Source: an uncultured candidatus Porisulfidus sp. (lineage in GTDB: Bacteria > Pseudomonadota > Gammaproteobacteria > Poriferisulfidales > Poriferisulfidaceae). From it: a DNA stretch of 64,000 bases. Position numbers and translations under genes: made by a program. Shown here in pieces: positions 1-9,406 of the stretch (the first letter of the stretch is position 1; the number at the start of each line of letters is the position of its first letter). Where the stretch lies: assembly GCA_965116025.1 (NCBI GenBank), contig OZ220480.1, positions 1,088,001 to 1,152,000 on the forward strand, read 5' to 3'. The notes under the pieces are model-generated. The model was not told the origin of the DNA. It ran no database searches and was given only the letters and a program-made list of their open reading frames with translations.

Positions 1-509
1 TCCGTGACGACGACCGAGAGCGTCGGCCTGTCCGGGCCAACGGCAAGTCCGAGGCTCTTGAGCGCGGCGCCGAGCCGCCCGTCGTCACCGGGCGCCGCGA
101 TTCGGGCGGCGCCAAGACGTCGTTCCGCCCATCTTGGCGTGGCTCCCTGCGCGCACCAGAACGCGGCCGACGCCCGGCCCATGGCGAAGTCGGCCGAGAC
201 GACGCAACCTTTGGCCGCGAGGGAAACGATGGCGGTCTGAACGCTTAGAGCCGAATGTCGCCCCGAAAGCTCAGTGATGATCTCGTGCCGGGTGAGGTTT
301 CCCTCAAGCAAGGGCGCGAGGTCGCGATACAACTCTCCGATCAGAAGAACGCTGGCGGTCTCGGACGCCAGCAACAAGGATCCGTCTTCCGCAATGCGAG
401 AAGTAAGATGAGGAGCCAGCAGTGGTCTTTCGACTATGCCTCGGTCGAATTCGGTGAACCGGCGCGGCGGCGCGAACGCCAGCTTCCATCCCGCTTGATC
501 GACAGACAC
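1..509 (-). CDS. TOMM/cyanobactin-type (PatD/LynD-like) cyclodehydratase, N-terminal RRE/E1-like part; partial, runs off the left edge
   Basis: Manual translation from GTG at 509 is open to base 1: ...RPLLAPHLTSRIAEDGSLLLASETASVLLIGELYRDLAPLLEGNLTRHEIITELSG...VSLAAKGCVVS...AAFWCAQG...LSVVVT(D/E). This follows the PH..LL.E...L.G.LY...PLL.G..T..I / LA.KG / AAFW / VVLTDDY pattern of PatD/LynD N-termini. The YcaO domain itself is not visible. Confidence 0.85.
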   Translation of the reverse strand, partial: MSVDQAGWKLAFAPPRRFTEFDRGIVERPLLAPHLTSRIAEDGSLLLASETASVLLIGELYRDLAPLLEGNLTRHEIITELSGRHSALSVQTAIVSLAAKGCVVSADFAMGRASAAFWCAQGATPRWAERRLGAARIAAPGDDGRLGAALKSLGLAVGPDRPTLSVVVT

Positions 510-579
510 TATGACAGCGCTCCCATGACCGAGCCCCGCGCGAGAGCGCGCGGGGAGACAGGAAGGCGATTCGGCCTCC

Positions 580-873
580 TTACTCGCTTTCTTTGTCCGT
601 CGTCGCGGCGTCCCGATAGGTGGAAGGCGCTGGCAAAAGAATATGGACGAGGTCACTGGTGTTGAAGACGAGTTTCACCTTGGCCCCTTCCGGGAAATCG
701 AAGCCCTCGGCCTTAAGAACGGCAGTCGGGTCGGCATCCATCTTCGCCTTGAAGTCGGGGTCGCCATAGTATTTCGCCACCACGTCCGCATAGAGTTGCT
801 GGCGCTCCTTCAGATCTCCCGATGTAAGAAGATCGGTGACCAAGGCATCAATCTTCTCATTAGGCTTATTCAT
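580..873 (-). CDS. NHLP (nitrile hydratase-like leader) protein without a core peptide
   Basis: DPDFKAKMDADPTAVLKAEG..P.G.KVKLVFNTSDLVHILLP matches the NHLP leader pattern. There is no L..V.GG cleavage motif and no core. An AGGAG RBS lies upstream. Confidence 0.8.
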   Translation of the reverse strand: MNKPNEKIDALVTDLLTSGDLKERQQLYADVVAKYYGDPDFKAKMDADPTAVLKAEGFDFPEGAKVKLVFNTSDLVHILLPAPSTYRDAATTDKESE

Positions 874-909
874 GTTAGTCTCCTTTATTCTCTGTTAATT
901 GTGAAAGTT

Positions 910-937
910 CCGCGCTCCCGGTCTCCCGGGAGCGCGG
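910..937. terminator. 12-bp GC stem-loop downstream of precursor 1 (partial terminator or mRNA stabiliser)
   Basis: CCGCGCTCCCGG-TCTC-CCGGGAGCGCGG, directly after the precursor stop codons. Confidence 0.6.
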
Positions 938-947
938 CGATGCCTTA

Positions 948-1364
948 CTAGCTGGCGCTACCCGCGGTGCCGGCGGTGCCGGCCGTGGAGAATGAGCTGA
1001 AAAACGTGCTGGTCTGGAAGGTGCTGGCCGAGCTGACGCTCCCCGCGCTGCCAGCCGTGGCGCCTCCTGACACCGCGCTCAAGCTCTCGTCCGCCAAGCC
1101 CGTATTCGGGTCGGGCGGCAAGATGAAATGCACGACTTCATCCGTGTTCGCGACCACATCGACTTGCATGCCGGTTACGGGAACATCGAACCCGAATGCC
1201 GCGTACACCTCGCTGCCGCTGGCCTTATCGATCTCGACGCGGAAATCCTCGTCGCTCCGATAACGGTCAGCCGCCTCGAGGAATCGCTCGTAGCTTTTCG
1301 TGTATGTTCCCATCGCCGTTGGCGACATATCGATATTTTCAAAAAAATTTCCTGCGGCGTTCAT
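948..1364 (-). CDS. NHLP-leader RiPP precursor 1
   Basis: Leader ends VHFILPPDPNTGLADESLSAVSGG. Core is ATAGSAGSVSSASTFQTSTFFSSFSTAGTAGTAGSAS. Start placed at ATG 1364 behind an AGGAG RBS. Confidence 0.9.
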   Translation of the reverse strand: MNAAGNFFENIDMSPTAMGTYTKSYERFLEAADRYRSDEDFRVEIDKASGSEVYAAFGFDVPVTGMQVDVVANTDEVVHFILPPDPNTGLADESLSAVSGGATAGSAGSVSSASTFQTSTFFSSFSTAGTAGTAGSAS

Positions 1365-1433
1365 AATTTTTTTCTCCTGGAGTTTTTGTCCGAAAGGATA
1401 GTTACTGGACATCCGATGACGTCGCGCGACGCG

Positions 1434-1823
1434 TCAGCCGGCTGATCCTGCCGATCCAACGGTGGACGCGCTGCCAAGACTGGAAAAGGAAGTGAAAGTG
1501 AGGAAGGTGCTCGCCGACCCGACAGTGCCGGCCGTGCTGGCCGTGCTGCCGCCGGAAATCTGGCTCAACTGCTCGTCCGCCAGATCACTGTTCGGATCGG
1601 GCGGCATGACGAAGTGCACCAGCTCATCGGAATCCATCAGAAACTGACAATCGATTCCTTCCAAGCGCGTCATTCCGAACTCGTCGAAGACATCGCTATT
1701 GTCGCCACGGTCAATCCGGTCACGGAAAGCCGCGTCGTTGCGGTAGCGGTCAGAAATGGCGACGATGAGCTCACGACGCTCGTCGTTCAATGTCATTTCC
1801 TGCATGAATTGTTCGCTTTTCAT
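1434..1823 (-). CDS. NHLP-leader RiPP precursor 2
   Basis: Leader ends VHFVMPPDPNSDLADEQLSQISGG. Core is STASTAGTVGSASTFLTFTSFSSLGSASTVGSAGSAG. Confidence 0.9.
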   Translation of the reverse strand: MKSEQFMQEMTLNDERRELIVAISDRYRNDAAFRDRIDRGDNSDVFDEFGMTRLEGIDCQFLMDSDELVHFVMPPDPNSDLADEQLSQISGGSTASTAGTVGSASTFLTFTSFSSLGSASTVGSAGSAG

Positions 1824-2167
1824 TAGCTTGCTCCATGTCGATTATGGACTCCCATTCTATACCATGTTCCCATGCGCATGCGAGAGGGCATTGGGACTAA
1901 ATGCAGGATGGCGCGTCACTCCGCTGGTGGCGACTGATAGAGACGATCCGGGGCGGGGGTGGGTTCTCGGATCATAGAGTTTCGGCTTTATCGAGCTCGT
2001 TGCGCGTCGGGCCTCGCTCACCGCGCCAACGGATTGATAGGGTCCGGCCTTCGGCCCTTCTGACCTTGTGGAGACGTGGGGGCGCGACGGGCGATTCTGA
2101 TCTGAGCGAATCTGTTCTGTGAGGAACCGGAGGCCGCGCGCAGGCAGGTTCGGATAGGCGAGGCCGT

Positions 2168-4681
2168 TCATGCTGGGTGGACGCTCGCCAGACGCGCGAA
2201 GGCGACGGCAAGCGCGGGAGTTCCGTCTATCCCCGAAAGATCGTGCCGATCATCGATCCATCTCTCGGCGAACCAGCTTTCCAGTTGATCGCGGTCTCGC
2301 CTCATGCGCGTCGCTGCCCGCCGGTCGGCGCAGACCGGCTCCGCATGGTTGGGGTCCAACCAAGGAGCGAGGCGGGGCAGGGCCGAAGGCGCATAAGGTC
2401 GTTGCGGTCCATGCCTCTCTGGAACCGTGCCGCCGAGGGCCAGCGCCGCGTCCTTCCAGCCAGCGAGGCCGGACACGAAATCGCTCCCGGACCGCATCCA
2501 CGCTTCTTTTTCCAAAGCACTTCGGTACACCATTCGCGCGTCCTCCCGCAGACAGGGCTCGCGCGCCAGCACTTGCAGGAGTCCGCCAACGCCGACCGCG
2601 TATCCGACTCCCATGTCTTGGCTGAAGTTCATGGATTCGGCATAATCGCGCGCCGCTCCCCTCAGTGTTTCGCGCGCGATAGCCGCCAAGTCCGTGCGGC
2701 CGAGCCTTTCGCCCAGCTCCAGCAGCGCCCGAGCGATTCCCGCGCGGCCCGAGAGAATATCGATGGAGAGTGGTGCCAGAAAACGCCTTCCGAAGTGAAC
2801 ATCATGCATCATGCCGATCCAGGTCGGGTACCCGCAATCGTTCGTCACGGCCAAATCCTGAACTTCGGTAGCGATCTGGTCCGCCCAAGCCAGAAGATCC
2901 CCCGGTTCCGCGGGAGCCGCCTGGCCACGAACCGGGGTTCGCCGTGGCGGATTGGCGGCGCGCGCGGAGAACGATGAGCGCAACCACGCCAGCCGCTCTC
3001 GGTCGGTCGCCTCGGTCATGGTTCCGAACGCGGCGCGCATGGTGGCTATCGCGTCTTCCTCGAAAGCGTCCCGCCGCGCCTCGCCCTCCACTCCCAGAAG
3101 GTCTCGAGAGGCCGGAGCGGTCAGGAACAGTGGAATGTCGAGACGGCGCATGTCGCGCACTGCCGCCTCGCGGAGCGCGCCGGACAACCCGGCATAGCGA
3201 GGCAACATCTTGTGCAAGGCGATCTCGCGCCATACGCCATCCGACAGGGTGCTGGGAAGGAGGGATTCCTGAACGATCCGGTAACAGGTCCACGTGTCAA
3301 TGAGGAGGAAGCGAAGCTGCGCGTCCGGCACGCTCTCGAGAGCCGCCAGGATCCGATCTTGCGTCGCCACCGAGCCCAACTCCCGGGAGACTCGGAGATA
3401 GCCGTCCTCAAGAGCGTCGAAATGCGCCGCGCTGTCCGCGAAATCGCCGGACTCGTAACGCGGGGCATATCGGTCTTCTTTCCAGACGAACAGGCCGTCT
3501 TGCTCTACGGCCTTCATCGGCGTGCGGTGTTCCCCTGGTTGGCAGAGGCAACCCAGATCGGTTGGCTCCAGACCTTCCCTGGTCGACATTTGGAGTGGCA
3601 ATATGCCAACGTTGGCGACTCTCATGCTGAAGCTGATTGCGTCCTCGTCAACCAAGCGTCGTATTTGTGGCGGCCACGGCGAGGTCGGCTGTAAAACCGT
3701 TTCGAAATCAACGAACCGCGGCGTGGGGCCGTCGGCGATCAGGTTGTCGAACCAGAAATCGGTCGCGTTCATGGTCTGGAGCAACGCTAGCCACCCGCCG
3801 AGCGCCTGGTAGAACCGGTCGGCGTCTCCGGTGTCGGTGACGGGTCGTGGCGCGTATTCCGTTTCCCAGGCATAGCCCGCGCGCGGTACCGTGGAAGGCG
3901 GCGAGAGATCGACGCTGGAAATCAAGCCGACGATTTCCTGCATCACGCCCGCGATTCGCAGATCCTTAGGTTTGAACACGACCGAGCCATTGGCGAAACG
4001 CAGGATCGCGACCGACCGCCCTCCGGCGTGCGGGTCGCCAAGTCCGTGCTCAATGCTGATCAGCAATCCGGGATCCCCGCCGCCGAAGAAGCGGCTGGAC
4101 AGTTCAGCCCGGTCGTTAGCCGCATGGCGCAGCATCCGAACAAGATCCGAACGCCAGTCGACCATCGCGCGGCCGAGCGCGTAGGCCAGCGCTGGGCTGC
4201 GGGCTAACCTCGCCTCCCAAGTCGATTTCGACACGCCCAGTCTGGCTTCATACCGCATGGTCTGCGTCAGGATCGAGCGGAAGCGCCATTCGAGATGCGA
4301 AATGGCTCCATCCAGCGCGTTGGCGCCGCGCGGCAGACCGTCGGGCCATTCCGCCTCAGCGCAACTCCGCGCCCATGAATAGACATCTGAAAAGGGCGCT
4401 TCGGTATCAGCCAGCCGGCTAAAGATTTCTCGAAAGGCGCGACCCCAGTCCGGCGTGGGGCCCTCAAGGCGGACATCGCCGAATCTCGCCAGATAAGCGT
4501 CCAAAGACAGCCCTAGGGTCTCGGCATGCGAGCCCAGCGCGCGCCGTGATCCGAATGCCTTGAGAAGCCTGTCCTCGCGGCGAGCCCAGGAGTCGGGGTC
4601 AGTGGGGGTCGAGATGAACGGCCCGTCGCCACCGCGCTCTGGTGGCGGCGACGCCCGAGCGATGAGAATATCGAGATCCAT
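2168..4681 (-). CDS. LanM-like (DUF4135) dehydratase with a truncated/degenerate LanC-like domain
   Basis: GDPHAGGRSV..VFKPKD, TDFWFDNLIA...VDFETVL, RFLLIDT and RLDIPLF motifs of class II dehydratases. The short C-terminal domain lacks the GxAHG/WCxG/CHG motifs. Confidence 0.85.
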   Translation of the reverse strand: MDLDILIARASPPPERGGDGPFISTPTDPDSWARREDRLLKAFGSRRALGSHAETLGLSLDAYLARFGDVRLEGPTPDWGRAFREIFSRLADTEAPFSDVYSWARSCAEAEWPDGLPRGANALDGAISHLEWRFRSILTQTMRYEARLGVSKSTWEARLARSPALAYALGRAMVDWRSDLVRMLRHAANDRAELSSRFFGGGDPGLLISIEHGLGDPHAGGRSVAILRFANGSVVFKPKDLRIAGVMQEIVGLISSVDLSPPSTVPRAGYAWETEYAPRPVTDTGDADRFYQALGGWLALLQTMNATDFWFDNLIADGPTPRFVDFETVLQPTSPWPPQIRRLVDEDAISFSMRVANVGILPLQMSTREGLEPTDLGCLCQPGEHRTPMKAVEQDGLFVWKEDRYAPRYESGDFADSAAHFDALEDGYLRVSRELGSVATQDRILAALESVPDAQLRFLLIDTWTCYRIVQESLLPSTLSDGVWREIALHKMLPRYAGLSGALREAAVRDMRRLDIPLFLTAPASRDLLGVEGEARRDAFEEDAIATMRAAFGTMTEATDRERLAWLRSSFSARAANPPRRTPVRGQAAPAEPGDLLAWADQIATEVQDLAVTNDCGYPTWIGMMHDVHFGRRFLAPLSIDILSGRAGIARALLELGERLGRTDLAAIARETLRGAARDYAESMNFSQDMGVGYAVGVGGLLQVLAREPCLREDARMVYRSALEKEAWMRSGSDFVSGLAGWKDAALALGGTVPERHGPQRPYAPSALPRLAPWLDPNHAEPVCADRRAATRMRRDRDQLESWFAERWIDDRHDLSGIDGTPALAVAFARLASVHPA

Positions 4682-5311: not shown

Positions 5312-6691
5312 TCACGTTTTCCCGCGTTGTCGGATGAAATCCAGAAAATACCGGATCCACGGGAATCGATCCGTATGACGAAGATGGCTATAGCTCGCGA
5401 GCAGATTGCCCAGAACCAGTCCGTCCACTCCTTCAGTGGTGCCGCTCCCCCGGCGGACCTTCCATCCCCACGCGATGCCATCGCCCAGATTCTCTAGGCG
5501 CGAATGGTGAAATTCGTGCGCGGGCGCCTGCAGCCCTGATGGGATATTGGGCCACGGGATATCGGCGGTGGCTTCCAGCTCTACCAGTCCCCGTCCCTGC
5601 GGGCGTGAATCCATGACGCAGTCGCCCGGGATGATTCCCGCCATTCTGTGGGTCTGGCCGTCATGGGAGATTCCTCGGGACAGATACATCAGTCCGCCGC
5701 ATTCGGCGTAGACTGGCAGTTCGGCCGCGACGCGCTCGCGCAAGGACTCGAGCATCGACGCGTTGGCCGCTAGGGCCTCGGCCTGGGTTTCTGGAAACCC
5801 GCCGCCAATCCACAGGCCGTCCACCTCGGGGAGGCTGGCGTCGCGCAGCGTGTCGAACGGGACGAGTTCCGCGCCCAGCAGGGCGAATCGCTCCAGATCG
5901 TCCGCGTAATAGAATCCGAACGCGGCGTCTCGAGCGTAGCCGACGCGCAGGTCTGGCGCTGGCGTGGACGCCGAGGGCCGCTTCGCTTTCGCGCCTTCCT
6001 CTGGGTCGCCCGCCAATCTGAGCAATTTCTCGACATCGACGCTCTGGGCGATGACTTGGCCCATTCTCTCGATTCTTTGGTCCGCGTCGGCTTGCTCCGC
6101 GCGAGCGACAAGCCCGAGGTGGCGCTCCGCGAGATGCATGTCCGGGGATCTTCCGATGGCGCCCAGGACCGGCAGGTCGGTATGCTGCTCCAAGGCATGG
6201 ACGAGCTTGGATTCGTGGCGGCTGCCGCCGGTTCGGTTCAGCAGGATGCCGGCCCATGGCAGGTCAGGGTCGAAGCGCTGGTAGCCGAGGACCAATGGCG
6301 CGACGCCGCGGGCCATTCCCTCGCAGTTCAGCGCGAGCGCGACGGGCGCCCGCAGAAGTTTGGCGAGGGCGGCGTTGCTGTCGGACCCATCCTCCGCCAT
6401 GCCGTCGAACAGTCCGTGGTTGCCCTCGATCAGAGCGTAGTCCGCGGTGAAGCGCCGGGCGGCGGTTTCCAGTATCTCCCGGCTCGTTTGCGTGTTGTAG
6501 TCTAGGTTGTAGCAAGGAAGTCGGGCGGCGCGGGATAGCCACATTGGATCAATGTAGTCTGGTCCTTTCTTGAAAGGCTGGACGGTTTCGCCGGCCCGGG
6601 CGAGCTCATGCAGCAGGCCGATGGCGAGACAGGTCTTGCCGCTGGATTTTCGGATCGCTGACAGGTAGATCCGGCGATTCTGGCCGGTCAT
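5312..6691 (-). CDS. dsrN: Siroheme amidase DsrN (cobyrinate a,c-diamide synthase family)
   Basis: SSGKT, FKKGPDYIDP, IEGNHGLFDG, AECGGLMYL and HEFH motifs; position at the end of the dsr operon. Confidence 0.9.
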   Translation of the reverse strand: MTGQNRRIYLSAIRKSSGKTCLAIGLLHELARAGETVQPFKKGPDYIDPMWLSRAARLPCYNLDYNTQTSREILETAARRFTADYALIEGNHGLFDGMAEDGSDSNAALAKLLRAPVALALNCEGMARGVAPLVLGYQRFDPDLPWAGILLNRTGGSRHESKLVHALEQHTDLPVLGAIGRSPDMHLAERHLGLVARAEQADADQRIERMGQVIAQSVDVEKLLRLAGDPEEGAKAKRPSASTPAPDLRVGYARDAAFGFYYADDLERFALLGAELVPFDTLRDASLPEVDGLWIGGGFPETQAEALAANASMLESLRERVAAELPVYAECGGLMYLSRGISHDGQTHRMAGIIPGDCVMDSRPQGRGLVELEATADIPWPNIPSGLQAPAHEFHHSRLENLGDGIAWGWKVRRGSGTTEGVDGLVLGNLLASYSHLRHTDRFPWIRYFLDFIRQRGKT

Positions 6692-6754: not shown

Positions 6755-6974
6755 GGCCAGGCGAGGCGGGAACGAGCGTCGCGAGGTCGGGATCGCGTTT
6801 TCCTCGCGCAGGGGTTCGCCCGGGGCGTCCCCGGTCGGTCGGATGACGGCGTCTCCCTCGCGTCGCGCGCCTTCCGGCTCGGTTCGTTTTCCGCCATTGC
6901 CGATGGCCCTTTTATGCTCCGCTCAACGTGAAAGGTTCGCGCTCTCGGTCTCCTAGGAGCGCGGCGATACCTTA

Positions 6975-7375
6975 CTAGCAGGCGCTGCCCGCGGCGCTGG
7001 CCGTGATGCCCACGGCGTGGCGGAGGATCTCGCGCCTAGGCCTAGTACGTGCTGAGGCTACCTGTGGCGACCGTGCCGAACGAGCTACCGCCGGAAATCT
7101 GGCTCAACTGCTCGTCCTCCAGATCGCTGTTCGGATCGGGCGGCATGACGAAGTGCACCATTTGATCGGAATCCACAAGAAACCGATAATCGATTCCTTA
7201 CCAAGCGCGTTATTCCGAATTCGTCGAAGACATCGTCGCTGTCGCCACGGTCAATCCGATCACGGAAAGCCGCGTCATTGTGGTAGCGGTCAGACATGGC
7301 GACGATGAGCTTATAGCGTTCGTCGTTCAACGTCATTTCCTGCGTGAATTGATCGTTGTTCATCAGCTGCTCCAT
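6975..7375 (-). pseudogene. Decayed NHLP precursor copy
   Basis: The leader is a close paralogue of precursor 2 with an extra A at 7200. The corrected frame reads ...DPNSDLEDEQLSQISGG-SSFGTVATGSLSTY*. An out-of-frame tail ITASAAGSAC** and the downstream DNA resemble the 3' end and hairpin of precursor 1. Confidence 0.85.
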
Positions 7376-7459
7376 GGTGGCTATGGGCTAGCATGGTATC
7401 ACTTCTTTCATGCGCCCGCAAGGAAGGATTCGGACTCGATCTCCGAGCTGATCGATTCT

Positions 7460-7542
7460 GGCGATTCGGGCCAGCCATGGCTCAGGCCTAGCCGGCCGGC
7501 TTGGGGTCCGACAGGTCCTCGGGGAGAACGTCCAGCGCGCCG
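7460..7542. repeat. Diverged direct repeat, copy B (functional dsrP end plus dead dsrN start)
   Basis: Aligns with 6673-6754. Confidence 0.9.
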
Positions 7543-8687
7543 AGTCCGGCGACGGTGATGATCAAGGCGATTCCGATCCCGGTGACGCCGAGCAGGAACT
7601 CCCAGACGCTTGGAGCGTAGGACGCGACCACGCCGTCAAAGAACGAGCTGCTCTCTTCCATGCCGGGAAACAGGACCAGGGGATAGGCTTGTCCGCCGAT
7701 GATGATGACGTATAGCTGGATCAAGCCGCCGGTGACGACGAGGCCGGCTCCGACCAGCGCGCTGACGCGGCATCGTCGGGTCTTTGGGGAGTAGAACAGG
7801 GCGAGCGGCGCGATGGAGCCGAGGCCGATCTGGCCGATCCAGAAGAGTTTCGAGTACAGGCTCTCGAAGTTCAGGATGAACGCCTCGAAGCCATGGTGCT
7901 CGGTGGCGTAGAGATTGGTCAGATGGTAGGCCAGAACGAAATACAACACCGCGGAGACGAACAGGGCGAGCAGGTTCTTCAGGCGGAACAGCAGAGAGTC
8001 GCCAAGGGTCCGTCCCGAGCCGCGACAGACCGCGGCCAGGACCAGCAAGAACGTGGCGGCGCCGAACGAGAACGACATGATGATGAACAAGGGGGCCATG
8101 ATAGCCGCGTCGTATCCTTGGCGGGCGACCAGAAAGCCGAAGATGGCCCCGGTGCCGGTAGTCAGGATGAGGCGCCACAGCAAGGCGAGCGTGCCGGCGG
8201 CCCGGGTCCAGCGGGAGAGAGCGGGCTGGAACAGCACGGACAGGTAGAGGGCGATCACGGCGAGCAAGCCGGTGTACAGGAAGATGTTCCAGGCGAAAAT
8301 CGACTTGAAGTTGTAGTAGGTCATGGCCACGATCAGCCGATCCGGGCGGCCGAGATCCAGCACCAGAATGGCGAGGCCACCGATCAGCAGTCCCGCGGCC
8401 AGGAGCCCGGACAGGCGGGCCAGCGGCTTGTAGGCCGGCTGGCCGAACACGGAGGCGATGGAGGCGACGTTCAGCGCGCCGGAGGCGGCGACGATCAGGA
8501 ACACGGCGAAGACGTGCGGGATTCCCCATACGACCTGATTGTTCATGCCGGTGATCCAGTGGCCTTCGCGCTCCAGATGGAGGAATCCGGCCAGTCCGGC
8601 CAGAACGGTCGCGGCCAGGATCGCGAGCAGACCCCAGTAGCCGCGGTCGGCGTTCAGCGCGGCGTAGCGGGTGGTGGCCAAGCTCAT
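7488..8687 (-). CDS. dsrP: DsrP, NrfD/PsrC-type membrane subunit
   Basis: TGMNNQVVWGIPHVFAVFLIVAASGALN and LDLGRPDRL motifs; multiple TM segments; ATGA overlap with dsrO. Confidence 0.93.
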   Translation of the reverse strand: MSLATTRYAALNADRGYWGLLAILAATVLAGLAGFLHLEREGHWITGMNNQVVWGIPHVFAVFLIVAASGALNVASIASVFGQPAYKPLARLSGLLAAGLLIGGLAILVLDLGRPDRLIVAMTYYNFKSIFAWNIFLYTGLLAVIALYLSVLFQPALSRWTRAAGTLALLWRLILTTGTGAIFGFLVARQGYDAAIMAPLFIIMSFSFGAATFLLVLAAVCRGSGRTLGDSLLFRLKNLLALFVSAVLYFVLAYHLTNLYATEHHGFEAFILNFESLYSKLFWIGQIGLGSIAPLALFYSPKTRRCRVSALVGAGLVVTGGLIQLYVIIIGGQAYPLVLFPGMEESSSFFDGVVASYAPSVWEFLLGVTGIGIALIITVAGLGALDVLPEDLSDPKPAG

Positions 8688-9406
8688 AGATTCTGGTAGC
8701 GCACGCCGGTGTTGAGCCCGAGGTCGGCCCGAATCTGGGTCGCGCCGAACTGACGGATTCGTTTCGAGATCTCGCTGTCCGGATCGTTCAGGTCGCCGAA
8801 CAGGATGGCTTGGTGTCCGTCCTTGTGGCAGGCTTCCGCGCAAGCGGTCGTGTTCTCTCCGGCATCGACCTTATGCGCGCACATGGTGCAGCTCTCGACG
8901 CAACCTTTGCCGCGCGGCGCGTGGGGCAGCTGCTCGGTCAGGTTCTCATGGATGAACGAGCGCGCCTTGTAGGGGCAGGCCATCATGCAGTAGCGACAGC
9001 CTATGCATGTGTGCTTGTCGACCAGAACGATTCCGTCCTCACGCCGGAATGAGGCGCCCGTCGGGCAGACGTCGACGCAGGGGGGGCGCTCGCAGTGCTG
9101 GCACATCATGGGCAGCGACACGGTCCTTCCGCTGAGCGGGTCGCGCGCGGAAAGCTTGCGGATCCATTGCGCGTCGGTTTCGGGGCGGCCTAGATCCTGC
9201 AGGTTGTGCTCCGTGTCGCAGGCGTCCACGCAGGCGTCGCAGTCTTCTTGGCACAGACGGGCGTCCACCAGCAGTCCCCAGCGGACGGCGTCGGTCACCG
9301 GGGTCGCTGGATTCTTGGCGTATAGGAACACGCCGGGCGCGAGGGTCAAAGCTCCGGCCGCGCCGGCCCCGCGCAGAAATTCGCGGCGGGTCAGATCCGG
9401 GATCAT
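8684..9406 (-). CDS. dsrO: DsrO, periplasmic 4Fe-4S protein
   Basis: Tat motif TRREFL; CQHCERPPCVDVCP and CIGCRYCMMACP clusters. Confidence 0.95.
   Translation of the reverse strand: MIPDLTRREFLRGAGAAGALTLAPGVFLYAKNPATPVTDAVRWGLLVDARLCQEDCDACVDACDTEHNLQDLGRPETDAQWIRKLSARDPLSGRTVSLPMMCQHCERPPCVDVCPTGASFRREDGIVLVDKHTCIGCRYCMMACPYKARSFIHENLTEQLPHAPRGKGCVESCTMCAHKVDAGENTTACAEACHKDGHQAILFGDLNDPDSEISKRIRQFGATQIRADLGLNTGVRYQNL

Follow-up and report, generated by a model that had tools for sequence, protein, structure and literature searches.

The window analysed here, a 64,000-nucleotide stretch of DNA from an uncultured candidatus Porisulfidus sp., begins with a run of features that all lie on the minus strand: a gene for a LanM-like protein, two genes for NHLP-type precursors, a hairpin, a gene for a core-less NHLP protein and the first part of a cyclodehydratase gene (Table 1). 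Every feature of the preliminary description was found in its place and on that strand. The description had further predicted that the DNA to the left of the window would encode a YcaO domain, an FMN dehydrogenase and an NHLP-type C39 transporter, and all three are present. The gene families of this left flank are a LynD-type YcaO domain, a SagB/CyaGox-type dehydrogenase, a second fused YcaO, TolC, HlyD and an NHLP C39/ABC exporter, with YcaO, TIGR03604/TIGR03882, TIGR03605, ThcOx and TolC among the profile families; the export genes score above the cut-offs of TIGR03794 (254 bits), TIGR03796 (1025 bits) and TIGR03797 (798 bits). The cluster runs from a predicted LanMbC through precursor A, precursor B, the core-less NHLP protein, fused YcaO 1, the SagB dehydrogenase, fused YcaO 2, TolC, HlyD and the C39-ABC exporter to a second ABC exporter, and it combines the two marks of a proteusin cluster, an NHLP leader ending in Gly-Gly and an NHLP export system.

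Table 1. Features of the locus, in window positions
Feature	Position	Strand	Description
Fused E1-like/YcaO cyclodehydratase 1, 5' part	1..656	-	820-aa ORF, 1806 bases of it beyond the window's left edge; ORF within the window 3..656
Core-less NHLP-domain protein, 97 aa	580..873	-	Ends just past a 'HILLPAP' stretch; TIGR03793 E 8e-10
Stem-loop separating precursor B from the leader-only gene	910..937	-	12-bp perfect stem, GAGA loop
Precursor B	ORF 948..1412, probable start ATG at 1364	-	NHLP leader, Gly-Gly site, 37-aa core
Precursor A, 129 aa	1434..1823	-	Core of 37 aa with 12 X-[S/T]-hydrophobic triplets, behind an NHLP leader and a Gly-Gly site
Predicted LanMbC-type dehydratase, 837 aa	2168..4681	-	DUF4135 kinase/eliminase domain and reduced LanC-like domain without zinc ligands
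Degenerate third precursor copy	6911..7436	-	Precursor A-like leader with one-base frameshift, joined to precursor B 3' end and hairpin

Azole-forming enzymes and precursor cores

The first cyclodehydratase probably starts near residue 49 of its open reading frame, since its orthologues begin later. Like the fused heterocyclases of the PatD/LynD type, it joins an E1-like/RRE part to a YcaO domain (Pfam YcaO, E 7e-97; TIGR03604, 262 bits, and TIGR03882, 120 bits, both over the cut-off), and it matches LynD (4v1t) over the full length, residues 80-816 against 9-771, with 568 bits and an E value of 3.6e-169; TruD and MusD are matched as well. The dehydrogenase matches CyaGox with 216 bits. Immediately downstream, a single SagB gene accompanies two fused YcaO genes, which places cyclodehydratases and an azoline dehydrogenase side by side.

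Against TIGR03793, precursor A gives an E value of 3.6e-7 (30 bits) and precursor B one of 7e-10, both below the cut-off of 50.9, and these low scores count against the dehydrazole-type reading proposed below. The internal ATG of precursor B is preceded by AGGAG. In each precursor the Gly-Gly site is followed by 37 residues, 18 of which are Ser or Thr (11 Ser and 7 Thr), and neither core contains Cys, Asp, Glu, Lys, Arg, His or Trp; the earlier account of cores rich in Ser/Thr and free of Cys and charge was correct for both. Ser/Thr occupy 12/12 in-phase positions of core A, a value reached by 0/500 shuffles, and 11/12 of core B (1/500 shuffles). The same rhythm is seen in 64 Ser/Thr/Gly/Ala-rich cores from related loci, which are not independent because paralogues and orthologues are among them: the Ser/Thr/Cys autocorrelation, 0.135-0.197 at other lags, rises to 0.33/0.32/0.32 at lags 3/6/9, the best-phase fraction averages 0.84 against 0.585 in shuffles, and in 39 of the 64 the observed phase value is reached by at most 5 of 500 shuffles. 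Many in-phase Ser/Thr have a Ser/Thr directly before them, as in nostatin A.

The absence of Cys, which the preliminary description took as characteristic of a class, holds for both window cores but not beyond them: 46 of the 64 related cores contain Cys, and the orthologues in loci L005 and L008 have Cys instead of the window's Thr at in-phase sites, with the Cys of the precursor A orthologues at in-phase positions 2 and 17. As Cys occurs at the window's Thr positions in orthologues, being Cys-free is a trait of the strain.

The LanM-like enzyme and its homologues

The 837-aa protein carries a DUF4135 domain (Pfam, E 6e-61), and its AF2 model (pLDDT 88.6) has its best fold matches in LicM2 and CylM. 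Identity as a LanM was nevertheless rejected. TIGR03897 (LanM) is the best NCBIfam match but scores 260.6 bits, under its cut-off of 304; LANC_like reaches 16.8 bits, under its cut-off of 23.2, its match being confined to positions 2-109 of a profile of 350; and across 22 aligned relatives the C-terminal domain has neither an invariant Cys nor a Cys-His pair, the Cys-Cys-His zinc site of LanM (CylM ligands according to PMC4550811) not being conserved. Three residues of this domain are nonetheless well kept (C784 in 19/22, H757 in 21/22 and H813 in 22/22), which counts against the dehydrazole-type reading. Invariant in all 22 are D216, H218, K239, D308, W310, N313, D325, R457 and T463. The first seven align with CylM D252, H254, K274, D347, H349 (here replaced by Trp), N352 and D364, while R457/T463 correspond to CylM R506/T512 only after a manual one-residue shift of a low-confidence alignment stretch; the roles of the CylM kinase and elimination residues are taken from PMC4550811. 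Judged by sequence, the protein would thus be a LanMbC, in which DUF4135 is fused to a cyclase-like domain without zinc ligands.

This enzyme aligns with a 1015-aa ORF of Chryseobacterium carnipullorum DSM 25581 (L044:9980-13027) at 25% identity over 826 columns (E 4e-56), with both N- and C-terminal ends matching and a DFW(L/F)DN motif common to the two. By length and locus this ORF is CcaM. The C. carnipullorum locus has the order YcaO-SagB-LanMbC, its YcaO and SagB being 39% and 33% identical to those of the window cluster, so that homology extends to CcaM, CcaB and CcaC. The window enzyme is 178 aa shorter than CcaM and lacks about 80 aa of the cyclase-like domain, a distance that also counts against a dehydrazole-type assignment. 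A further homologue, at 27% identity (E 6e-65), is found in Nostoc sp. KVJ20, a strain that is not the nostatin A producer. The compact enzyme forms a family of about 80 clusters at 45-86% identity in which linkage to YcaO and SagB is kept: both lie within 10 kb in 21/24 of its loci, and NHLP precursors are found in 20/24. This compact 837-aa LanMbC subfamily, occurring in MAGs of several phyla, is new.

A dehydrazole-type pathway and its alternatives

Dehydrazoles, with carnazolamide as the characterised member (Pei, Zhu, Nair, Nat Commun 2023; PMC10676384), are defined by an NHLP precursor, a YcaO, a dehydrogenase and a 'LanMbC' enzyme, whose DUF4135 part is joined to a cyclase-like domain lacking zinc. 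Nostatin A, a natural product of this kind reported in 2024, consists of Dha/Dhb-azole-X units and is made from an NHLP precursor by a YcaO, an oxidase and a LanM-like enzyme (PMC11583998). The cluster described here has corresponding genes, and its precursors are of the NHLP type with Ser/Thr/Cys-rich cores, albeit with NHLP scores under the curated cut-off. We therefore regard the locus as very probably part of a proteusin RiPP cluster of the dehydrazole type, 11 genes long, whose right-hand end it forms; the proposed pathway runs from azole formation through dehydration to export. It is a fresh example, from an uncultured bacterium, of a class already known, and not a new class, since the pathway type was first described in 2023.

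The order of the steps, the modified sites and the products we infer as follows. Both LynD-type cyclodehydratases would bind the NHLP leader and, with ATP, turn the middle Ser/Thr of each X-[S/T]-hydrophobic triplet into a (methyl)oxazoline, which the CyaGox-type flavoprotein would oxidise to a (methyl)oxazole, at up to 12 sites in A and 11 in B. LanMbC would then phosphorylate and eliminate Ser/Thr directly before an azole, giving Dha/Dhb at up to 6 sites in A and 4 in B. These predicted counts are upper limits because in carnazolamide only 8 of 20 Ser/Thr/Cys were cyclised and dehydration was shown for Ser and not for Thr (PMC10676384). That azoles form first is likely; the triplet pattern of the window's cores is compatible with it, and CcaM, according to that paper, dehydrates only Ser preceding an azole, and only after the action of YcaO and dehydrogenase. 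Lanthionine would not be formed, as Cys is absent from the cores and the enzyme lacks a recognisable zinc site. Finally, the C39 exporter would cleave after Gly-Gly, and an uncharged, sulfur-free peptide would leave via HlyD and TolC. The chemistry of the preliminary description, in which Ser/Thr give (methyl)oxazol(in)es and Dha/Dhb in hydrophobic, sulfur-free peptides without lanthionine, is plausible, and small ribosomal peptides bearing oxazole rings and dehydro-amino acids are the predicted products.

The preliminary description had gone further and seen in the locus a hybrid class of RiPPs not known before, whose NHLP precursors never carry Cys and have their Ser/Thr divided between a PatD-type cyclodehydratase and a cyclase-dead LanM, each working independently of the other. 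The locus has enzymes of both kinds, and 18 of the 64 related cores are Cys-free like those of the window, but the other cores have Cys at azole-type positions, the enzyme is homologous to CcaM, and the dehydratase of the characterised member depends on azoles (PMC10676384), which speaks against two independent enzymes dividing one Ser/Thr pool. Above all, dehydrazoles (PMC10676384) and nostatin A (PMC11583998) have the same architecture, and a characterised family of that kind was the finding named beforehand as decisive; the claim of novelty fails on it, and we consider this reading very improbable. Automated annotation might label the locus an ordinary class II lanthipeptide cluster, a reading that draws on DUF4135 and the TIGR03897 match and is less probable still, to the point of being negligible: that match is below its cut-off, the Cys-Cys-His site is missing, the operon-like run also contains a pair of YcaO genes and a dehydrogenase gene, and the cores offer no Cys for (methyl)lanthionine, on which ground the label was rejected for the substrate too.

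One may also ask whether the compact LanM-like protein has ceased to dehydrate, acting only as a kinase, as a scaffold or azole-binding chaperone, or persisting as a relic, so that plain linear (methyl)oxazole peptides result. Its C-terminal domain is reduced, and CcaM is active only with an intact, fused C-domain, whose removal abolished activity (PMC10676384); Trp moreover replaces the DxH histidine of canonical LanMs. Yet active CcaM has the same D-F-W motif, and the H349A mutant of CylM still functions, slowly (PMC4550811). The invariance of the elimination residues R457 and T463 and of the P-loop residues D216/H218, the conservation of the family and its maintained linkage to YcaO and SagB, and the nostatin A-like Ser/Thr before in-phase Ser/Thr also argue for an active dehydratase, which makes this possibility unlikely, though the least so of the three.

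Compared with the cca cluster, which it resembles in its NHLP precursor with a Ser/Thr/Cys-rich core and in the three homologous enzymes, the window cluster has a dehydratase with a shortened C-domain, two fused YcaO paralogues per one dehydrogenase, several precursors with Cys-free cores and an extra core-less NHLP gene; it lacks a radical-SAM epimerase, a methyltransferase and an S8 protease, with Gly-Gly cleavage instead predicted for a C39 ABC exporter, alongside HlyD and TolC. In Nostoc sp. CCALA 1144, the nst cluster shares the NHLP precursor, cyclodehydratase, oxidase, LanM-like enzyme and triplet periodicity (PMC11583998), but nostatin A further contains thiazoles, a sactionine bridge and an isobutyl-proline made via radical-SAM enzymes, genes absent from the window cluster. 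Goadsporin and thiopeptides likewise unite azoles and dehydro-amino acids in one peptide; they dehydrate by LanB-type glutamylation/elimination, whereas a LanM-type ATP-dependent kinase/eliminase is predicted here (PMC10676384). Cyanobactin LynD/TruD/PatD and CyaGox are similar to YcaO 1 and the dehydrogenase in sequence, but the window cluster has no PatA/PatG protease or macrocyclase, and its precursors are NHLP-type and not PatE-type. The srp proteusins of sponge microbiomes (SrpE/SrpC/SrpI) also pair NHLP precursors with YcaO and are spread across phyla, but their LCCCW core and brominase SrpI have no counterpart here: both cores lack Cys and Trp, and all 11 cluster genes fall in other families. 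Among LanM-type dehydratases, PoyF of polytheonamide and the NHLP-specific OspM and DprM likewise serve NHLP pathways; the latter two have a functional cyclase and act as leader-dependent lanthionine synthetases, whereas the window cluster has neither zinc site nor Cys substrate.

Core-less NHLP gene, hairpin and degenerate copy

The core-less NHLP protein lacks both the LxxxxL...Gly-Gly segment and a core. Its family comprises 87 clusters with lengths of 71-129 aa, and it occurs in 15/24 related loci at 57-88% identity; this conserved protein is, like the compact enzyme subfamily, new.

The hairpin of the earlier account is borne out by folding, at -30.3 kcal/mol against -14.1 +/- 2.6 in shuffled sequences (z -6.2), with 0/200 shuffles folding as well. 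A clear T-run is absent at 910-937 and a terminator scan gave no entry for it; probably it serves as a partial terminator or as a stabiliser holding precursor mRNA above enzyme mRNA. The degenerate third precursor copy is 83% identical in nucleotides to window 1525-1898 and 82% to 884-978, and at 6911-7005 it retains the hairpin at 82% identity.

Gene run at the left end of the window

The six-frame ORF listing and family scans of the window, which lies at G000:C1:1088001-1152000 in a host genome made of a single 2.02 Mb contig, bear out the minus-strand gene run of the preliminary description, from a LanM-like gene through two precursor genes and a leader-only (core-less) NHLP gene to a gene that leaves the window at its left edge. 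In the 14 kb of DNA examined to the left (locus L004) the run continues on the same strand, and the YcaO domain, FMN dehydrogenase and NHLP-type C39 transporter that had been predicted there are all present. The left-edge gene encodes a fused E1-like/YcaO protein (YcaO1) that matches LynD (4v1t) with 568 bits across residues 80-816, and TruD and MusD match it too. Its 820-aa ORF probably begins too early (window 510-656, L004 14510-14656), since both the orthologues and the alignment with LynD set in near residues 49-80; were the start placed further in, the 77-base overlap with the core-less NHLP gene would vanish.

Features of the gene run and its right flank, from right to left, with the continuation left of the window (L004)
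Feature	Position	Strand	Evidence or remark
DsrO	8684-9406	minus	304 bits
DsrP-like membrane protein	7488-8843	minus	
Degenerate third precursor copy	6911-7436	minus	nucleotide identity to precursors A and B
CobB (cobyrinic acid a,c-diamide synthase)	5312-6691	minus	399 bits
LanM-like protein, 837 aa	2168-4681	minus	DUF4135 E 6e-61; TIGR03897 260.6 bits (cut-off 304)
Precursor A (NHLP)	1434-1823	minus	ORF listing, family scan
Precursor B (NHLP)	948-1412, probable start 1364	minus	ORF listing, family scan
Core-less NHLP-like protein, 97 aa	580-873	minus	neither cleavage site nor core
YcaO1, fused E1-like/YcaO, 820 aa	left edge; N-terminal 218 residues inside window, runs off edge	minus	Pfam YcaO E 7e-97; TIGR03604 and TIGR03882 above cut-off
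SagB-type dehydrogenase	left of YcaO1 (L004)	minus	TIGR03605, ThcOx; CyaGox 216 bits
YcaO2, second fused YcaO, 767 aa	beyond SagB (L004)	minus	
TolC	beyond YcaO2 (L004)	minus	
NHLP HlyD protein	after TolC (L004)	minus	TIGR03794
NHLP C39/ABC exporter	after HlyD (L004)	minus	TIGR03796, 1025 bits
Second NHLP ABC protein	last of leftward run (L004)	minus	TIGR03797, 798 bits

Between precursor B and the core-less gene lies a hairpin (910-937) with a perfect 12-bp stem and a folding energy of -30.3 kcal/mol (z -6.2; 0/200 shuffles fold as well). A scan for promoters and terminators was uninformative: it listed 3 promoter-like sites where 1.3 were expected and 6 terminator-like sites where 5.3 were, and the hairpin is missing from the latter because it has no T-run. 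Situated 3' of the precursors, it probably keeps their transcripts in excess over those of the enzymes.

The CobB and Dsr genes on the right flank have no relation to the cluster; no homologue of CobB, DsrP or DsrO was found near the enzyme in 24 related loci, and the flanks are therefore not syntenic. The DsrP-like and DsrO genes indicate that the host has a DsrMKJOP-type sulfur metabolism. In the degenerate precursor copy, positions 7064-7436 share 83% identity with the leader of precursor A and its upstream DNA and are frameshifted by an additional base near 7200, and positions 6911-7005 share 82% identity with the hairpin and the 3' end of precursor B. As this copy lies beyond CobB, the LanM-like and CobB genes separate the live precursors from the remnant.

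Relation to the dehydrazoles

The cluster had been proposed as a new hybrid RiPP class, in which a cyclodehydratase and a LanM-type dehydratase divide the same Ser/Thr residues. Our analysis suggests that this chemistry is probably right in outline, but the class is not new, as the same architecture appears in PMC10676384 and PMC11583998. Dehydrazoles were defined by Pei, Zhu and Nair (Nat Commun 2023; PMC10676384) on the carnazolamide (cca) cluster of Chryseobacterium carnipullorum, with an NHLP precursor (CcaA), a YcaO (CcaB), a dehydrogenase (CcaC) and a LanMbC (CcaM), the last being a DUF4135 dehydratase fused to a zinc-less cyclase-like domain. In that account CcaM has no action on the unmodified peptide, acts without the leader and requires its fused C-domain; more than 50 related clusters are reported, one of them with two YcaOs, one LanMbC and several precursors. 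Nostatin A, isolated from Nostoc (Delawska et al., Org Biomol Chem 2024; PMC11583998), is described as a chain of Dha/Dhb-azole-X units, and its nst cluster as an NHLP precursor, a cyclodehydratase, an oxidase and a LanM-like enzyme. Since cca and nst already have the architecture proposed as new, and since the triplet grammar of nostatin A matches the cores in the window, the locus belongs to the dehydrazole class as a new member, within a compact subfamily, and opens no new RiPP class. An NHLP locus with a LanM-like gene and a docking protein had already been noted by Haft et al. 2010 (PMC2887384).

What the window adds to this two-year-old class is a distinct, compact enzyme subfamily of about 80 protein clusters. 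A database search with the 837-aa LanMbC of the window returned about 84 clusters at 45-86% identity (820-912 aa), all but one with DUF4135 only, beyond which identity falls sharply, to ~30% for true LanMs of ~1000 aa. Its LANC_like match amounts to 16.8 bits over profile positions 2-109 of 350. The AF2 model (pLDDT 88.6, pTM 0.89) is matched best by LicM2 (E 3e-27) and CylM (E 1e-22), and by LanCL1 over only ~200 columns. Across a 22-member alignment the C-terminal domain has no invariant Cys and no Cys-His pair, with C784 conserved in 19/22, H757 in 21/22 and H813 in 22/22 members. Invariant in the alignment are G215, D216, H218, K239, D308, F309, W310, F311, D312, N313, D325, R457 and T463, and alignment to CylM with position counting gives as their counterparts D252 and H254 (P-loop/elimination), Lys274, Asp347 and the metal ligands Asn352 and Asp364; the elimination residues Arg506/Thr512 are matched only after a one-residue shift of a low-confidence stretch. 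The single change relative to the catalytic residues of CylM, whose roles are described in PMC4550811, is His349 to Trp, and the H349A mutant of CylM is reported there to work still, slowly.

The canonical LanM DxH motif reads D-F-W across the whole LanMbC clade (residues 308-313 of the window's enzyme, about 3743-3760, minus strand). Since D-F-W also stands in the biochemically active CcaM, the exchange of His for Trp typifies this clade and is no defect. A genome scan with a profile of the next-nearest relatives (~1000 aa) and the pattern D[FMY]W[LF]DNL[IVL]A yielded 64 loci, among them C. carnipullorum DSM 25581 (L044), other Chryseobacterium, Tenacibaculum, Mesonia, Nostoc, Polyangium and Chloroflexota. 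About 26 long-form loci of the 64 have YcaO and SagB next door, and the order YcaO-SagB-LanMbC holds in the cca locus and in most other long-form loci. We took the 1015-aa ORF at L044:9980-13027 as CcaM, since its length is exactly that given in PMC10676384. The window's enzyme is 25% identical to it over 826 columns (E 4e-56), rising to 45% in the last 49 residues, and is 178 aa shorter, with about 80 residues absent between the aligned parts of the cyclase-like domain; a Nostoc homologue is 27% identical (E 6e-65), and the YcaO and SagB of the cca locus share 39% and 33% identity with their counterparts here. The scanned pattern could serve as a simple signature of azole-dependent dehydratases, and one may speculate that the Trp of D-F-W contacts the azole.

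Automated annotation would probably label the enzyme a 'type 2 lanthipeptide synthetase', as the sources name more distant relatives so; the next relatives (Thalassospira marina, Blastocatellia) are called 'LanM' only, and an ESM Atlas search gave generic DUF4135/LanM clusters only. A lanthionine or labionin product is ruled out by the cores, which have no Cys. The srp proteusins form a distinct NHLP/YcaO family, described with LCCCW cores and a brominase in the cluster, and a product of that type is ruled out as well, since the window's cluster has neither an LCCCW core nor a halogenase. The LanM of Cystobacter fuscus (P0091), a species with a cluster named in PMC10676384, was rejected as a link, because in its locus (L030) neither YcaO nor SagB lies within 10 kb, which makes the protein an ordinary LanM.

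Triplet cores and a proposed pathway

After Gly-Gly, cores A and B have 37 residues with 18 Ser/Thr, no Cys and no charged residue. Precursor A consists of 12 consecutive X-[S/T]-hydrophobic triplets, with in-phase Ser/Thr in 12/12, a value reached by 0/500 shuffles; precursor B has 11/12, reached by 1/500. The 24 related loci and the window yielded 91 precursor-like ORFs in which a cleavage site can be recognised (and 4 in which none can); in 64 of the 91 the core is rich in Ser/Thr/Gly/Ala and at least 27 residues long. In these 64 cores the autocorrelation of Ser/Thr/Cys is 0.33 at lag 3 and 0.32 at both lag 6 and lag 9, other lags giving 0.135-0.197; the best-phase fraction averages 0.84, compared with 0.585 for shuffled cores, and 39/64 cores are reached by at most 5/500 shuffles, these being trials on mutually related cores and so not independent.

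The absence of Cys, which had been put forward as a feature of the class, did not hold for the family: 18/64 cores are free of Cys and 46/64 contain it. Orthologues of precursor A have Cys at core positions 2 and 17 (L005) or 17 (L008), where the window has Thr, and the orthologue of precursor B in L005 has Cys at position 17. Freedom from Cys is thus a trait of this genome and of L007, and the Cys/Thr interchange marks those core positions as predicted azole sites. The natural Cys-free variants would give all-oxazole, sulfur-free dehydrazoles.

On the grounds of homology and core grammar we propose three steps. The YcaO enzymes and the flavoprotein would first convert the central residue of every triplet into a (methyl)oxazole; the LanMbC would then turn a first-residue Ser/Thr into Dha/Dhb where an azole follows, with candidate sites at 1, 4, 13, 19, 22 and 28 in A and 10, 13, 22 and 25 in B; and the C39 exporter would cut off the leader after Gly-Gly. 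The predicted numbers of modifications, 12 azoles and 6 dehydrations in A and 11 azoles and 4 dehydrations in B, are upper limits, because carnazolamide is described as cyclised at only 8/20 candidate residues (PMC10676384) and Thr dehydration is shown, among these sources, only for nostatin A (PMC11583998). The strict periodicity of the cores eases prediction of the products.

The compact subfamily and its core-less NHLP protein

The 24 related loci came from two scans of species-representative genomes, with neighbours mapped by tblastn within 10 kb of the enzyme, and lie in MAGs labelled Alpha- and Gammaproteobacteria, Vicinamibacteria/Vicinamibacterales, Binatia, Paracoccaceae, Ca. Marinacidobacterium and Ca. 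Porisulfidus; the compact subfamily occurs under the labels Alpha-/Gammaproteobacteria, Acidobacteriota and Binatia. YcaO and SagB are present in 21/24 loci, NHLP precursors in 20/24 and the core-less NHLP gene in 15/24, and two YcaO paralogues per single dehydrogenase are kept in the subfamily. Three loci depart from this: L006 has the enzyme alone, and L027 and L028, the latter a 32% relative, lie at contig edges. The subfamily may already be included in the data of PMC10676384, which has six SSN networks, for example as the Ca. Thioglobus cluster with two YcaOs.

The core-less NHLP proteins make up 87 clusters of 71-129 aa, all ending right after a conserved HI(V/L)LPAP stretch and thus without the LxxxxL...Gly-Gly segment that exporters and RRE domains are described to use (PMC10858898). 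Matches of at least 57% identity fall in the compact subfamily only, and a literature search on such proteins found no relevant paper. The predicted complex of the core-less protein with YcaO1 scored 0.43 against 0.00 for the best control, with three runs in agreement and a partner pLDDT of at least 70, on a scale whose mark is reached by 58/80 solved complexes and 2/110 mismatched pairs, only 7 of the 80, together with both mismatches, doing so at scores of 0.60 or less. As an NHLP leader-YcaO complex of like kind has been modelled in print (PMC12455567), this pass may reflect family likeness. A tentative and rather improbable reading, to which the predicted complex lends weak support, is that the core-less protein is a natural 'leader in trans', docking on the LynD-type cyclodehydratase and keeping it on, or tuning it, for full cyclisation of long triplet-repeat cores, and that it is the defining mark of a compact dehydrazole subfamily, with an 837-aa LanMbC, arrays of several precursors and some products whose rings are all oxazoles, which has spread to uncultured bacteria of several phyla. 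If this is true, the protein would mirror in nature the engineered heterocyclases that carry a fused leader. The accessory protein itself could serve to test in what way large structured leaders control YcaO enzymes.

The related loci vary in layout. In the three closest (L005, L007, L008) the LanMbC gene is divergent from the precursors; in the window they are co-directional (1434-4681). Enzymes with 83-86% identity are found in MAGs under both alphaproteobacterial and gammaproteobacterial labels, which suggests either horizontal transfer or loose labelling. In L006 (also L070) the LanMbC gene is by itself in 22.5 kb; the remaining cluster genes, including that of the core-less NHLP protein P0254, probably lie elsewhere in that genome.

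In the host genome itself, a third fused E1-like/YcaO gene is found at G000:C1:799652-800671 (L031 7368-9785; 805-aa ORF, Pfam YcaO 333 bits), with a transposase-like ORF and a gene for an NHLP-type ABC exporter next to it. Near it there is no SagB, LanM-like gene or precursor resembling precursor A, and L031 may be a second RiPP locus or the remnant of one. Two LanMbC genes with two YcaO/SagB sets stand side by side in L019 (also L067, Vicinamibacterales). Precursor arrays reach up to ~20 genes per locus, as in L023 (also L078, Ca. Porisulfidus), where ~20 precursor-like genes lie within 20 kb of one YcaO/SagB/LanMbC set.
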